Notes: a model not told the origin generated them from the letters alone. Positions 3,448 to 22,939 are shown, counted from the first letter of the stretch. The stretch: 26,813 bases of DNA from a virus (IMGVR_UViG_2537561933_000012), one strand, 5' to 3'. Numbers and translations are program-made.

Positions 3448-5546
3448 AACCATCCTCCAGAAGTCAGCCAGGGGTTAACATCGTCAGTTACTGTTTTCTT
3501 CCGTTTTTGTTTTTTAACAGGCGTGGATACCGGTTCCGGTGAGGATGACGGTTCGGTACTGTCCTGGACACACTCCAGCCAGGTTTCCCGGCTCGCCCAC
3601 TCCGGTGCATCCGGCCAGCGGATCTTTTCGTATCCATGCAGAATGACCAGAGCCTCGGCATACACCATCAGGTCAAAAGCTTCGTTGGCACCGCGACCCG
3701 GCTTACTCCATTTCCCGTCACTGCTCCGCTCTTCATACGTCAGTTCGTCGTAAAACCAGCTCCCCAGCCAGTCAGGGAAATGCACATAGCCTGGACCTGG
3801 CGAGTCACGCCATAACGCGTTATTCACCCGGTCTTTCAGGGCATCCGTCTGAAGAAGCCAGAGCGGCACATCACCTGCGGCCTGCGCCCGGCGGCCCGTT
3901 CGTCCGGTGTTATCAGGGAATGTACGGCTGATCAGTTTTGCGCGCCGGATGCTGTCCCCCTTAAACAGGTAAATACGTTTACCAAGGCCATCACGACGGC
4001 AACGACGCCAGAATTTATAGGCATTATCAGTGACCCCGTCTTCACCGCCGGAGTCCACCGCCATTGCCATCAGTCGCATTTGTTGAGAAGGATCGGAGGC
4101 CAGCGGCCAGCTTTTATGAAAAACATCCGTCAGCAGGACATCCCAGTCTTCCGGATAGCTGGCCGGATCAATTCGCTGGCTCTCCCCGTCGCTGTCACCG
4201 CGCAATGACTGCGTGATGTTGTAACGATCAATAATCCAGCGTTCGCCACGGCTGCCATAGCCCGTTACCTGAACCACAAAACGGCGATGACGTCCCGCCT
4301 GCACATCCACTGTCGCCACAAGGAAATTAACGCCATCCGGCACACTGCGGGAAGGAACTGGCTCTGCCCGCTGCTCAAGCAGTTCACTTTTTCGTTGCTC
4401 CATGCTGGCGCGGGGAAGATAAGGTAATCCCCAGTCGGTATTGATAACCGTCTTGAGTGTTTCTTCACTTCCGGTTGTCTCGTATTCCTGTTCTGCAGTA
4501 AGCAGTTTGTAAACGAGTTGCGAGAGTGTCTGGTAAGCAGCTGCCGGACCCTCCATCCAGAATGACGCAATACGTGAGCGTCGGGGATCACCATAACGAC
4601 TGCCATCCGCATTGATGGATTCACCATCCCGCAACCAGACCCCACGTCCGTTCAGCTCACGTTTTTGTTCAGGCATAATCCGTCCTGAACAGGAAGGACA
4701 CTGAATATAAGCCGCCTCACTTGCCAGCACGGGATCGGCAATATCACGGAAACCAGCAACCACATCGCCGCAGGGCTGAAAATACTCACCACAGTGTGGA
4801 CAAGGCCAGTACCAGCGACGGCGATCGCCACGGTTATAGAGCGACAGTATCCCCGTGGTTGGTGGAGCCTCATGCGGTGAAGTCCGTCGCCATTTCACAT
4901 CCTTCACATCCCTGCCGGGGGAACTCTCCACAAGCGTCATACCACTGGACATAAATGTTGTGGTACGTTTTGAGGCAAGAGAGAAAGCATCCCCCTCGCC
5001 ATCAATATCTTCCGGAAAACGGTCATAATCCGTCAGCGCGACGCATTTATAATCTGATGAGGACATGATATTGACTGACGGCCAGCCGATTTTCAGGTAG
5101 TTACCAGCAAGGAATGTTCTGTCATAAACGTTGTTGTCATTTTTGTTCGGACTCAGGCGACTGACCACTTCCGGGCTGACGCGAAACGTTCTGGCGAGTC
5201 GTTTTTTGGAGTGTTCGCGGGCTTTTTCCTCCGTCATCTGTATGATCAGCATATCAGCAGGATCGCAAATCACGTTGTAAATCCCCCAGCCGTCAATCAG
5301 GCCGATAGTCTTACCAGTTCGTGCCGGGCCAACAAATATCACTGCGTCGTATTCACGCGAGGCCAGGCAGTTCATCGGCTCAATAACATACGGTGCCACC
5401 AGCGGATCCCACGGGACTGAATTCCCGGCCCCCATGGGCACCCGCATATACTGAGCAACGGCATCAGCAACCCGCATTCGTCTCGGTGCGCGAAGGATAT
5501 AACCTGAATCGGTTCGTGCTGCCTTTGCGGTTTCCTGATTCAGCAT
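3444..5546 (-). CDS. Terminase large subunit, lambda gpA family, 700 aa
   Basis: Long ORF with CPHCGEYF zinc-finger-like motif as in lambda gpA (CPHCGEEQ); start overlaps small-subunit stop (TAATG). Confidence 0.9.
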   Translation of the reverse strand: MLNQETAKAARTDSGYILRAPRRMRVADAVAQYMRVPMGAGNSVPWDPLVAPYVIEPMNCLASREYDAVIFVGPARTGKTIGLIDGWGIYNVICDPADMLIIQMTEEKAREHSKKRLARTFRVSPEVVSRLSPNKNDNNVYDRTFLAGNYLKIGWPSVNIMSSSDYKCVALTDYDRFPEDIDGEGDAFSLASKRTTTFMSSGMTLVESSPGRDVKDVKWRRTSPHEAPPTTGILSLYNRGDRRRWYWPCPHCGEYFQPCGDVVAGFRDIADPVLASEAAYIQCPSCSGRIMPEQKRELNGRGVWLRDGESINADGSRYGDPRRSRIASFWMEGPAAAYQTLSQLVYKLLTAEQEYETTGSEETLKTVINTDWGLPYLPRASMEQRKSELLEQRAEPVPSRSVPDGVNFLVATVDVQAGRHRRFVVQVTGYGSRGERWIIDRYNITQSLRGDSDGESQRIDPASYPEDWDVLLTDVFHKSWPLASDPSQQMRLMAMAVDSGGEDGVTDNAYKFWRRCRRDGLGKRIYLFKGDSIRRAKLISRTFPDNTGRTGRRAQAAGDVPLWLLQTDALKDRVNNALWRDSPGPGYVHFPDWLGSWFYDELTYEERSSDGKWSKPGRGANEAFDLMVYAEALVILHGYEKIRWPDAPEWASRETWLECVQDSTEPSSSPEPVSTPVKKQKRKKTVTDDVNPWLTSGGWL

Positions 5547-8045: not shown

Positions 8046-8579
8046 CTAGCTGTCGATACCCCAGCACACCAGTGCCGCTTCCTGGTCACGGCGAATAACC
8101 TGTCCATAGCAGTTATTTGAACGTATGCGGCAATCGCGTCCACCATCTTTTATCCACCAGCGAATCGCCTCGCATGCACCCTTACGATCACCGGCATTCA
8201 GCCGCTTATAAAACGTCGACGGGAAACACTTACCGGGGCCAATGTTATAGGGACAAAATGACGCTATACCCGCTTTCTGGGGTTCGCTCAATGGCACTTT
8301 GATGTTTTTCTCCACCCATGCCAGCGCCTTATCACGCTCAATGGCGTTAACCTGGTCGCATTCTTCCTTCGACAGCTTCATTCCCGGTATGACGGGCTTA
8401 CCATCCACCATTGTGGCACCACGACAGATGGTCCATATACCGGAACCATCGCGGTATGCCGTAGTGTGGTTACCCTCTTTTTCATCCAGAAACTGGTCAA
8501 GTATTTGAGGAGCAGACGCGCCTGCAGCAATCAGCGCCAGAACAGCAGCTGACAGGCCGTATTTGATTTTTGCGCTCAT
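8046..8579 (-). CDS. SAR endolysin, T4-lysozyme-like (GH24), 177 aa
   Basis: N-terminal G/A-rich hydrophobic SAR-like segment GLSAAVLALIAAGASA; E...D...T catalytic spacing in EGNHTTAYRDGSGIWTICRG. Confidence 0.9.
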   Translation of the reverse strand: MSAKIKYGLSAAVLALIAAGASAPQILDQFLDEKEGNHTTAYRDGSGIWTICRGATMVDGKPVIPGMKLSKEECDQVNAIERDKALAWVEKNIKVPLSEPQKAGIASFCPYNIGPGKCFPSTFYKRLNAGDRKGACEAIRWWIKDGGRDCRIRSNNCYGQVIRRDQEAALVCWGIDS

Positions 8580-9329: not shown

Positions 9330-9402
9330 TTATGAATGATCGCCTGCCCGAAGGTTAGTATTTCTGCACAGCAATTTTGCAAAAAAAGGCGATCATTCAT
9401 AA
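9330..9402. repeat. 15 bp perfect inverted repeat (TTATGAATGATCGCC / GGCGATCATTCATAA) with 43 nt spacer
   Basis: Read directly from sequence; lies in the late transcript leader between the tRNAs and the holin. Confidence 0.6.
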
Positions 9403-9461: not shown

Positions 9462-9536
<75 letters not shown>

Positions 9537-9539
9537 ATA

Positions 9540-9615
<76 letters not shown>

Positions 9616-9617
9616 AC

Positions 9618-9694
9618 TGGACCGCCACCGGGGACTCGAACCTCGCACACTCAACTTAAAGAGTTGACGCTCTTTCCTGATGAGCTAGTGGCGG
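9618..9694 (-). tRNA. tRNA of uncertain identity (anticodon positions read UUU, Lys-like, but loop is UCUUUAA with C at position 33)
   Basis: Acceptor CCGCCAC/GTGGCGG, T-loop TTCGAGT, CCA encoded; non-canonical anticodon loop and one A-C mismatch in the T-stem. Confidence 0.5.
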
Positions 9695-9695
9695 T

Positions 9696-9771
9696 TGGTG
9701 GCCCTTGCTGGATTTGAACCAGCGACCTGGCGATTATGAGTCGCTCGCTCTCACCACTGAGCTAAAGGGCC
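9696..9771 (-). tRNA. tRNA-Ile2 (anticodon CAU, ileX/ileZ-like)
   Basis: GGCCCTTTAGCTCAGTGGT...CTCATAA...GGTTCAAATCC...AAGGGCCACCA, close to recalled E. coli ileX. Confidence 0.8.
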
Positions 9772-21673: not shown

Positions 21674-22004
21674 TTCACCCTCCTGAGGGTTGGTAATTAA
21701 GGAGTTCTCCACGGGTCAGGTGGAGTGCGTGCGCCGGACACGGGTGAGCATCCGGCACTGGCAGTTTACTGGAAGGATATATCCCTGAAAAGTCAGGACA
21801 TAACGCGAAAGCGCACGGCGAAGTTATTCTGTCTGTACGGTGTCGTTAAATTTAATTCGACCGTGCGCTTCCGGTTGTGGCAATCCGCGAAATGGCGCGG
21901 CGGTAAGTATGGCGGGGTTATTCCTTCCCCGTTGAGGACACCGGGTTGTCAGGTTGACCATACGCTTAAGTGACAACCCCGCTGCAACGCCCTCTGTTAT
22001 CAAT

Positions 22005-22062
22005 TTTCTGGTGGCGTTTAGCGGTATCAGTTTTACTCCGTGACTGCTCTGCCGCCCTTTTT
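22005..22062 (+). ncRNA. dicF: DicF small RNA with intrinsic terminator
   Basis: TTTCTGGTGGCGTTTAGCGGTATCAGTTTTACTCCGTGACTGCTCTGCCGCCCTTTTT, two mismatches to the recalled K-12 DicF; upstream of dicB. Confidence 0.75.
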
Positions 22063-22066
22063 AAAG

Positions 22067-22214
22067 TGAATTTTGTGATGCGGTGAATGCGGCTAAGCGC
22101 ACGCGGAACAGTTAAAACCAAAAACAGTGTTATGGGTGGGTTCTCTGTATCCGGCGTTAATTGTTAACTGGTTAACGTCACCTGGAGGCACTAGGCACCG
22201 CATCACAAAATTCA
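22067..22214. repeat. 19 bp perfect inverted repeat (TGAATTTTGTGATGCGGTG / CACCGCATCACAAAATTCA) enclosing 110 bp between DicF and dicB
   Basis: Read directly; right arm ends 17 nt before the dicB ATG. Confidence 0.65.
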
Positions 22215-22231
22215 TTGTTGAGGACGCGATA

Positions 22232-22420
22232 ATGGAAACGTTATTACCAAACGTTAATACGTCTGAAGGTTGTTTTGAAATTGGTGTCACTATCAGTAAC
22301 CCAGTATTTACTGAAGATGCCATTAACAAGAGAAAACAAGAACGGGAGCTATTAAATAAAATATGCATTGTTTCAATGCTGGCTCGTTTACGTCTGATGC
22401 CAAAAGAATGTGCACAATGA
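22232..22420 (+). CDS. dicB: Cell division inhibitor DicB, 62 aa
   Basis: METLLPNVNTSEGCFEIGVTISNPVFTEDAINKRKQERELLNKICIVSMLARLRLMPKECAQ, near-identical to recalled K-12 DicB; GAGGACG Shine-Dalgarno. Confidence 0.85.
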   Translation: METLLPNVNTSEGCFEIGVTISNPVFTEDAINKRKQERELLNKICIVSMLARLRLMPKECAQ

Positions 22421-22608
22421 ATTCAGCATTTGCGCTTGTTCTGACAGTTTATCTTGTTTCCGGAGAGTCAGTTGATATTGCAGTCAGTGTTCACAGGACA
22501 ATGCAGGAATGTATGACTGCAGCAACCGAACAGAAAATTCCCGGTAACTGTTACCCGGTCGATAAAGTTATTCACCAGGATAATAACGAAATCCCGGCAG
22601 GTCTTTAA
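22417..22608 (+). CDS. ydfD: YdfD-like lysis protein, 63 aa, N-terminal TM
   Basis: MNSAFALVLTVYLVSGESVDIAVSVHRTMQECMTAATEQKIPGNCYPVDKVIHQDNNEIPAGL; overlaps the dicB stop (ATGA). Confidence 0.8.
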   Translation: MNSAFALVLTVYLVSGESVDIAVSVHRTMQECMTAATEQKIPGNCYPVDKVIHQDNNEIPAGL

Positions 22609-22939
22609 AACAGTTCCGTAATAAACATCCGCTTTCATTCTTATATGCCAGCAATGGCAGGGATTTGTTCACCCTTAAATCTGTAATGAGGTAAAACAAA
22701 ATGAGTAAACAGTCTTTATTTGCGCCGCCATTCCGGACGAACAGGCAATAAAGGAAGAAGGTGCCGTCACTGTAGCCACTGCCATTGAAGCCGGTGATGA
22801 ACGTCGCGCCCGCGCAAAATTTCACTGGCAATTCCTGGAGCATTATCCGGCTGCTCAGGACTGCGCTTATAAATTTCTTGTTTGCGAGGATAAACCCGGT
22901 ATATCCCGCCCTGCCCTCGATTCCTGGGATGCTGAATAT

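Follow-up and report, generated by a model that had tools for sequence, protein, structure and literature searches.

We detected, between the DicF sRNA and dicB on a 26,813-nucleotide stretch of viral DNA (IMGVR_UViG_2537561933_000012; hereafter the window), a 19-bp inverted repeat that is real and functional. On the + strand the repeat is an RNA helix, and this helix, P1, closes a structured domain (22065-22216). Rather than leaving a simple loop, the arms enclose 110 nt that form a conserved pseudoknotted domain with several helices (P1, P2, P4, P5 and a pseudoknot), which covariance models and alignments place in a diverged clade of the STnc100/PasD prophage RNA superfamily that falls below the Rfam threshold. 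RNase III probably cuts P1 in the read-through dicBF mRNA, uncoupling DicF from the toxin mRNA and excising the domain. The original prediction, made from the sequence, saw in the repeat a long-range stem that might serve as an RNase III site or translational control element, and it missed the enclosed domain and its kinship with STnc100-type RNAs. That domain appears to be the new element here, while the RNase III site is a known one.

The sRNA at the head of this arrangement is a typical DicF. Over its model positions 1-52, Rfam family RF00039 aligns to 22006-22057 (+ strand) with the terminator hairpin present and scores 68.6 bits, above the gathering score of 48; both this match and the K-12 alignment place the 53-nt K-12 form, including its terminator hairpin, at 22005-22057. 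The U-tract of the intrinsic terminator follows at 22058-22062 on the same strand; because it terminates DicF, all RNA downstream of it requires read-through. Two substitutions relative to K-12 had been proposed, and the alignment gives exactly two, A10G and G16A in DicF numbering. G16A costs the terminator stem its first pair, and cmscan marks this one basal pair as non-canonical. The other substitution, A10G, is in the 5' region of DicF, which pairs with xylR according to the passages on targets in PMC5069750; for pykA, those passages give a DicF3 mutant phenotype without a pairing statement. The locus is very common: of 5426 complete E. coli genomes, 4651 match a 481-nt query. DicF and the domain also occur, at 97% identity, in MT713136.1 (Aeromonas phage AP1, 254 kb) at 249906-250152, near the end of this jumbo phage record; an Escherichia prophage segment is unexpected in such a host, and the copy may be an assembly chimera.

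The repeat was found exactly where it had been predicted after the DicF terminator, with arms at 22067-22085 (TGAATTTTGTGATGCGGTG) and 22196-22214 (CACCGCATCACAAAATTCA) that are 19 nt long, 100% complementary and separated by 110 nt. Among inverted repeats with loops up to ~260 nt, it is the longest perfect one in the 26.8-kb window. Chance origin was ruled out with 200 block shuffles, in which the longest repeat reached 16 bp, once, and none reached 17 bp. Downstream, 17 nt separate the 3' arm from the dicB ATG at 22232, also as predicted, and the Shine-Dalgarno sequence GAGGA lies between them at 22220-22224 (22220-22234 with the start codon, + strand). The dicB coding sequence runs from 22232 to 22420 on the + strand and encodes a 62-aa product (Pfam DicB, E = 5e-39), and ydfD (22417-22608, + strand) overlaps its end. 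No sigma-70-like site that could serve as an internal dicB promoter was found on the + strand of 21700-22700, in agreement with PMC10448788, where no additional promoter was found. Within dicB, codons 2-10 (22236-22260) contain a direct repeat, AAACGTTATTAC / AAACGTTAATAC, that is predicted to form an AACGUU/AACGUU hairpin beginning 4 nt past the AUG.

Folding of the DicF-dicB interval, proposed as a check on the repeat, yields the predicted long-range stem. In the minimum free energy (MFE) fold of 22006-22260 the arms form a 21-bp closing helix (z = -5.06 against shuffles). Its 5' strand is 22065-22085, the 19-nt arm plus A22065 and G22066, and its 3' strand is 22196-22216, the arm plus U22215 and U22216; both are placed on the + strand by the repeat, the fold and covariation. 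Comparison with K-12, proposed as a further check, shows the pairing kept through two adjacent wobbles: a C to U change in the 5' arm and another in the 3' arm give K-12 a tandem U.G and G.U where P1 of the window has two G-C pairs (C-G and G-C). Since such wobbles pair in + strand RNA and are mismatches in DNA or in - strand RNA, the helix acts as + strand RNA. Arm changes in relatives are likewise compensatory or produce G.U wobbles. We examined these changes in an alignment (A3) of 29 distinct dicB-, kil- and tciA-type homologues, using a structure that we specified ourselves (P1, P2, pseudoknot, P4 and P5). In this structure 95.3% of cells are paired and 12 pairs have changed on both sides; its covariation score was reached by 0 of 500 shuffles, and sliding the partners by 1-3 columns lowered the paired cells to 33-41%. 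P1 itself has double changes in 7 of its 21 pairs (for instance, 17:161 from A-U to U-A or G-C, and 6:173 from U-A to C-G) and 90.6% of its cells paired. The loss of the repeat in relatives had been named as evidence against a function, and across the 29 homologues its pairing is largely kept.

The same observations bear on a DNA-level element, either a miniature transposon, the arms being its terminal inverted repeats of 19 bp, or a palindrome bound by a protein. Perfect arms bounding a module of ~150 bp that occurs in several genomic contexts would suit such an element, which we nevertheless consider scarcely credible. Arm variation preserves RNA pairing through G.U, leaving mismatches on DNA and on the - strand, the flanks carry no target-site duplication, and copies in P7, D6 and Klebsiella phages keep the core with unrelated outer arms. 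A covariance model built only from the dicB-type alignment (R1) is also strongly asymmetric, scoring 179.3 bits on the + strand of the window against 33.7 bits on the - strand. On the G.U variation, the strand asymmetry and the lack of a duplication, a miniature transposon or DNA palindrome was ruled out.

The domain, as it is read from 22065 to 22216, consists of P1, GAAU, P2, a pseudoknot strand, a variable insert, P4, an unpaired A, P5 and the 3' strand of P1. On the + strand, the first junction (J1/2, AAU at 22086-22088) is part of a near-invariant GGUGAAU in alignments A2 and A3. It leads into P2 (22089-22104, + strand), a 5-bp hairpin with a bulged A22101 and a UAAGC pentaloop that was recovered by RNAalifold and is 100% paired in A3. 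Across 49 superfamily representatives, RNAalifold shows its pairs 18:33, 20:31 and 21:29 switching from C-G to G-C in 12-15 sequences. The 5' strand of the pseudoknot (CAGUUAA, 22109-22115, + strand) is followed by the variable insert (22116-22152, + strand), whose length and sequence differ wholly between homologues. A conserved small ORF in the element, such as a 26-aa ORF at 22087-22167 or an in-frame GTG ORF from 22127, was rejected, as this middle segment is unrelated between homologues. P4 (22153-22179, + strand) has 8 bp (GGCGUUAA/UUAACGUC), of which 4 show both-side changes in A3, and an 11-nt loop in which UUAACUG (22164-22170) forms the other half of the pseudoknot. P5 (22181-22195, + strand; alignments including A3) is the hairpin CCUGG-AGGCA-CUAGG and contains GGAGG; one of its pairs is G.U in the window where most homologues have G-C. 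In the form CCNGG-AGGCA-CNNGG, the Shine-Dalgarno-like GGAGG of P5 is invariant in every sequence collected, which is partly circular because the retrieval pattern specified GGAGGCAC. P5 is flanked by UCACC and GCACC, either of which could pair with the invariant GGUGA. The conserved core can thus be written as GCGGUGAAU-GCGGCUNAGCGCACGC-GGAACAGUUAAAA-[variable 20-55 nt]-CCGGCGUUAAUUGUUAACUGGUUAACGUC-A-CCUGGAGGCACCAGG-CACCGC.

The pseudoknot joins the strand 3' of P2 to the P4 loop over 7 bp, and though its strands are invariant within the clade, they covary across the superfamily, where we found CAGUUAA/UUAACUG, CCAGUC/GACUGG, CUGGUGU/ACACCGG, GACUGAC/GUCAGUC, UCUGGUUA/UAACCAGA and CUGAUUA/UAAUCAG. 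Loop columns are inconsistently aligned in the covariance-model alignment, which made pair-counting unusable, and so each strand was compared with its cognate loop and with permuted, non-cognate loops. Mean cognate complementarity was 5.98 against 4.26 +/- 0.14 for permuted loops, and 0 of 2000 permutations reached 5.98.

The core is homologous to STnc100. A permissive cmscan matched STnc100 (RF02076) to 22055-22264 with 34.9 bits and E = 6e-6, below the gathering score of 47, and the alignment is full-length (model positions 1-206). Other copies of the clade, in Rac, P7, Klebsiella phages and Stx phages, score 32.9-44 bits, and true STnc100 copies, such as the three between Q and the holin gene of Fels-1, score 59-138 bits. 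Detection is reciprocal: R1 finds a single copy in the window (22062-22218, + strand) and recovers STnc100-type RNAs at E = 4e-17 to ~1e-6, including two of the three Fels-1 copies, with the third at 19.9 bits (E = 0.0015). A search with the 3'-core pattern TCACCNGGAGGCACNNGGCNCC returned more than 120 viral contigs with 112 distinct variants. In the joint alignment of 49 representatives, RNAalifold gave P1, P2 and P5 as consensus helices, with compensatory changes in 8 of 18 pairs. The clade thus shares with STnc100 and PasD (the latter from EPEC/EHEC prophages) the same helices, the near-invariant GGUGAAU ... UCACC-GGGAGGCACCCGG-CACC and a prophage location. It differs in P2 (GCGGC.../...GCACGC instead of CCCCC.../...GGGG) and in P1, which is 20-30 bp in lambdoid copies of the clade and 8-12 bp in STnc100-type RNAs. 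Among papers that use the term STnc100, our literature search found no link to the dicF-dicB spacer.

STnc100 and PasD are prophage sRNAs without a described function; both have been reported as abundant, discrete RNAs, Hfq binding has been reported for PasD, and Rfam files the family as sRNA. STnc-type copies have their own strong terminators 20-40 nt past P1, after a non-conserved spacer (66 of 84 copies), and 20 of the 84 lie directly behind late-promoter-like TTGAC-N17-TAnnnT sites downstream of Q; these features, together with tandem arrays, mark the STnc type as a stand-alone sRNA architecture. The window copy, unlike STnc100 in its Q-to-lysis region, is in the early-left operon as a gene leader, and after 17 nt it meets an ORF rather than a spacer and intrinsic terminator. 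Its clade carries neither a promoter nor a terminator of its own, and a downstream terminator was found for 2 of 30 dicB-type copies. Tandem STnc100-type domains were observed in Fels-1 (L134:2072-2285, 2486-2608 and 3609-3827), where three copies lie between Q and the holin gene and the third ends 46 nt before the holin start, and in another viral contig (L079:4370-5473 and 8381-8514) with at least 5 copies; each copy is usually then followed by its own terminator. EDL933 has 11 annotated STnc100 copies.

Late-promoter-like sites upstream and intrinsic terminators downstream of STnc-type copies could also recall put, the processive antiterminator RNA of HK022 that modifies RNA polymerase to read through downstream terminators. 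Like put, the domain is a cis-encoded structured RNA in lambdoid early or late leaders, yet a put-like role seems very unlikely. The put RNA has two stems and ~70 nt and binds the beta' zinc-binding domain of RNA polymerase, and it has no detectable homology to the domain. Moreover, the phages concerned encode Q, and the domain in the window comes after, not before, the only nearby terminator. A whole-genome R1 scan of HK022, which has putL and putR, gave no match even with filters off (best 12.1 bits, E = 0.06), and with no family member there, put-like identity was rejected.

The core is pseudoknotted, has several helices and keeps its junction and loop nucleotides (GGUGAAU, GCG, A and P5 CCGGGAGGCACCCGG) nearly invariant, and it might instead be a sensor, a riboswitch-like or protein-binding aptamer whose occupancy controls downstream expression through switching of P1. 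It is joined to a terminator in some loci and to a ribosome-binding site in others, as many as 5 copies stand in tandem on one contig, and the UCACC and GCACC beside P5 can both pair with GGUGA. We consider this improbable, however, as the genes downstream are functionally unrelated and there is no known ligand or protein partner. The Rfam classification as sRNA and the occurrence of STnc100 and PasD as discrete RNAs also argue against a sensor. When we checked for a riboswitch platform, STnc-type copies had no overlap between P1 and the terminator and no evident antiterminator, and dicB/kil-type copies had a weak predicted contact with the Shine-Dalgarno sequence.

In Enterobacteriaceae prophages the clade is found ahead of a variety of genes. 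By blastn, the interval 22052-22216 occurs without dicB in Rac-SA53, Stx phages 75/02 and POCJ13, an Actinobacillus-labelled phage, P7, D6 and Klebsiella phages, where it is always unannotated. The genes 3' of the domain are dicB, kilR/kil, tciA (TerB family, in the P1-like ban operon), a Rha/Ash gene or small unknown ORFs; they share no function, and in the loci collected the downstream ORF starts 32-66 nt past the domain. In an exact-pattern scan of one genome per species, the clade appeared in Escherichia, Shigella, Pseudescherichia, Klebsiella, Citrobacter and Enterobacter, along with a few metagenome bins labelled Veillonella, Collinsella, Nanosynbacter and unclassified Proteobacteria, where we suspect mis-binning. 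Directly 5' of the element, 22 of 30 dicB/kil-type copies have DicF or a DicF-like terminator hairpin with a T-run. P1 length tracks this context, being long behind a DicF-like terminator and short where the RNA has its own terminator, and it is 8-15 bp in the P7, D6 and Klebsiella copies. In Rac-SA53 (L003:1948-2002), with equivalents in other kil-type loci, the domain upstream of kilR is preceded by a DicF-like hairpin and terminator; the Rac hairpin scores 41.1 bits on Rfam DicF, below the gathering score of 48. We conclude that the clade is a portable leader module ahead of dicB, kil and other prophage genes, and that a DicF-like sRNA, an STnc100-like domain and a division-inhibitor gene form a conserved module.

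Passages on DicF in PMC5069750 and PMC9438474, citing Faubladier, Cam and Bouche 1990, describe, beside the 53-nt terminated form, a 72-nt DicF that RNase III generates from the full-length mRNA. Counting 72 nt from 22005 leads to 22076, 19 nt past the end of 53-nt DicF; this is the tenth nucleotide of the 19-nt 5' arm and lies 12 bp into the helix from its outer end. This position is coordinate arithmetic from secondary citations, and an error of +/-5 nt would stay inside the arm; the RNase III cut that makes 72-nt DicF would thus lie at 22076|22077, in the 5' arm of P1. In length, the 21 bp of P1 cover the approximately two helical turns (20 bp or more) of double-stranded RNA expected of an RNase III substrate. 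RNase III leaves a 2-nt 3' overhang, so that a matching cut in the 3' arm is predicted at 22206|22207; we know of no mapping of this cut. Consistent with cleavage here, Table S1 of an rnc-minus RNA-seq screen (PMC5371410) lists position 1649470, "intergenic dicF-dicB", for which the mutant gave 26 reads and each wild-type replicate 0, and flags it as known. From the offset of K-12-coordinate matches, this position corresponds to ~22093 in the window, inside the element; counts in the screen are low here and sites were forced to be at least 400 bp apart, so we take it as supporting evidence only, and the peak could be the shoulder of a second site that RNase III cuts upstream of DicF. Overall, the RNase III interpretation appears correct and is almost certainly not new, as the site of 1990 is at the same locus and has been known since then. 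In their passages on 72-nt DicF, the two citing papers give neither the dicB-side pairing partner nor the enclosed 110 nt.

An RNase III cut is also reported, in the accounts consulted, at the 5' end of a 190-nt DicF precursor. By arithmetic this cut is ~137 nt upstream of DicF, at ~21868, in the 3' arm of a hairpin (21806-21818 / 21861-21873) of 13 bp (92%) with a 42-nt loop, so DicF appears to be flanked by two separate RNase III hairpins. A single duplex joining the cuts upstream and downstream of DicF was rejected: complementarity by eye amounted to 6 bp, and the repeat search contained no such pair.

Taken with the clade comparison, these positions suggest how the locus could work. The domain occupies the stretch of the polycistronic dicBF mRNA that is made on read-through, after the DicF terminator and before the dicB ribosome-binding site, and its P1 appears to have been lengthened from the 8-12 bp of STnc100-type RNAs to ~20-30 bp in the lambdoid dicB and kilR/kil copies, which would make it an RNase III substrate. 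RNA polymerase would read through the DicF terminator, the domain would fold, and RNase III would then cut both strands of P1, at ~22076|22077 and at the predicted 22206|22207. This is predicted to yield DicF-72, a core of ~130 nt (22077-22206) and a dicB-ydfD mRNA whose 25-nt leader is 5'-monophosphorylated. As a net result, sRNA and toxin mRNA would be uncoupled and the downstream mRNA most likely exposed to decay. On the simplest reading, the long P1 lets RNase III do the job that a terminator does elsewhere, cutting the domain out and parting DicF from the toxin mRNA. Phage polycistronic mRNAs are known to carry RNase III helices in the lambda N leader, lambda sib and the T7 early R sites, and P1 would resemble these as an operon duplex cut by host RNase III that separates units and sets the stability or translation of a neighbour. 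It differs from them in that the helix encloses an independently conserved pseudoknotted domain instead of a simple loop and that one product is an Hfq-dependent sRNA.

A tentative alternative, compatible with RNase III processing, is that the domain acts as a translational gate, in which, on unprocessed read-through RNA, the long helix and its outward extension would keep the dicB or kil Shine-Dalgarno sequence masked by the terminal part of the DicF terminator and the U-tract until cleavage or opening licenses toxin translation. In 28 of 30 copies, 17-40 nt separate the domain from the start codon, and both the MFE fold and the partition function pair GAGG (22220-22223) with CCUU (22056-22059), giving the Shine-Dalgarno sequence a predicted unpaired probability of 0.13 (window) or 0.22 (K-12). 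A helix of ~30 bp is predicted for Rac kilR and would reach into the GG of GGAG (unpaired probability 0.02-0.03). The arms, however, stop 5 nt before the Shine-Dalgarno sequence, and the 4-bp extension is weak and crosses an internal loop. Predicted accessibility after cleavage is only 0.30-0.41 (from 0.13 to 0.30 in the window), and in kilR it drops, from 0.37 to 0.08. Gating cannot be the ancestral role of the domain, because no ORF adjoins the STnc-type relatives. Because the predicted masking is weak and inconsistent between dicB and kilR, we rank gating second. Of the two functions first suggested for the repeat, an RNase III site is upheld by the 72-nt end at ~22076 and the listing at 1649470, and translational control gains little from arms that miss the Shine-Dalgarno sequence and from so small a predicted gain in accessibility.

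For RNase III processing, the fate of the core would distinguish between two outcomes. One is that the ~130-nt pseudoknotted RNA is a third product of the dicF-dicB and DicF-like-kil operons, freed by RNase III rather than by its own terminator, and that the core (GGUGAAU, the P5 GGAGG loop and the pseudoknot) has a specific molecular function, for example, host-factor binding or sponging, sensing or catalysis; we regard this as rather unlikely. Wild-type coverage inside the core is 0 reads in the data of PMC5371410, which leans against a stable excised core in K-12 under repressing conditions, though low operon expression or library size selection could lie behind the zero. The absence of reads favours the other outcome, and we suggest with modest confidence that the helix is a processing and decay entry site that limits dicB expression.

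The DicF/DicB module of prophages, which blocks host cell division and confers protection against phage, is a textbook case, yet the uncoupling of the sRNA from the toxin mRNA has only been sketched. Placing the RNase III end in a 21-bp helix supported by covariation turns that sketch into an explicit, testable model with two cuts, a 25-nt dicB leader and an excised core. The sub-threshold STnc100/PasD clade, which Rfam-based annotation misses in its dicB-type form, ties the leaders of dicB, kilR/kil and tciA to abundant prophage sRNAs that have no described function. The pseudoknot model and its natural variants are thus a resource for working out the role of a widespread phage RNA fold.

Several smaller features were observed in the window and in related phages. 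Four tRNA genes (43.8-73.8 bits) lie at 9465-9771 on the - strand of the window, apparently in the late region of the same prophage and in the slot that STnc100 occupies in other lambdoid phages; the second-longest perfect inverted repeat of the window (16 bp, 9330-9402) adjoins this cluster. The domain is also found among tRNA genes in P7 and D6. Just upstream of it in P7 (L005:1804-1888), and at the equivalent position in D6, is a tRNA-Sec-like match of 46.6 bits (gathering score 47), which D6 annotation gives as tRNA-Ser with a UGA anticodon. D6 has a second, weaker copy of the domain (33 bits, L010:3179-3293) downstream of tciB, at a slightly later locus position than the tRNA-Ile of P7 (P7 locus 2863-2935), as judged from locus coordinates. 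At the start of the window, 41-244 on the - strand matches the Rfam IS009 RNA with 129.2 bits (gathering score 117).
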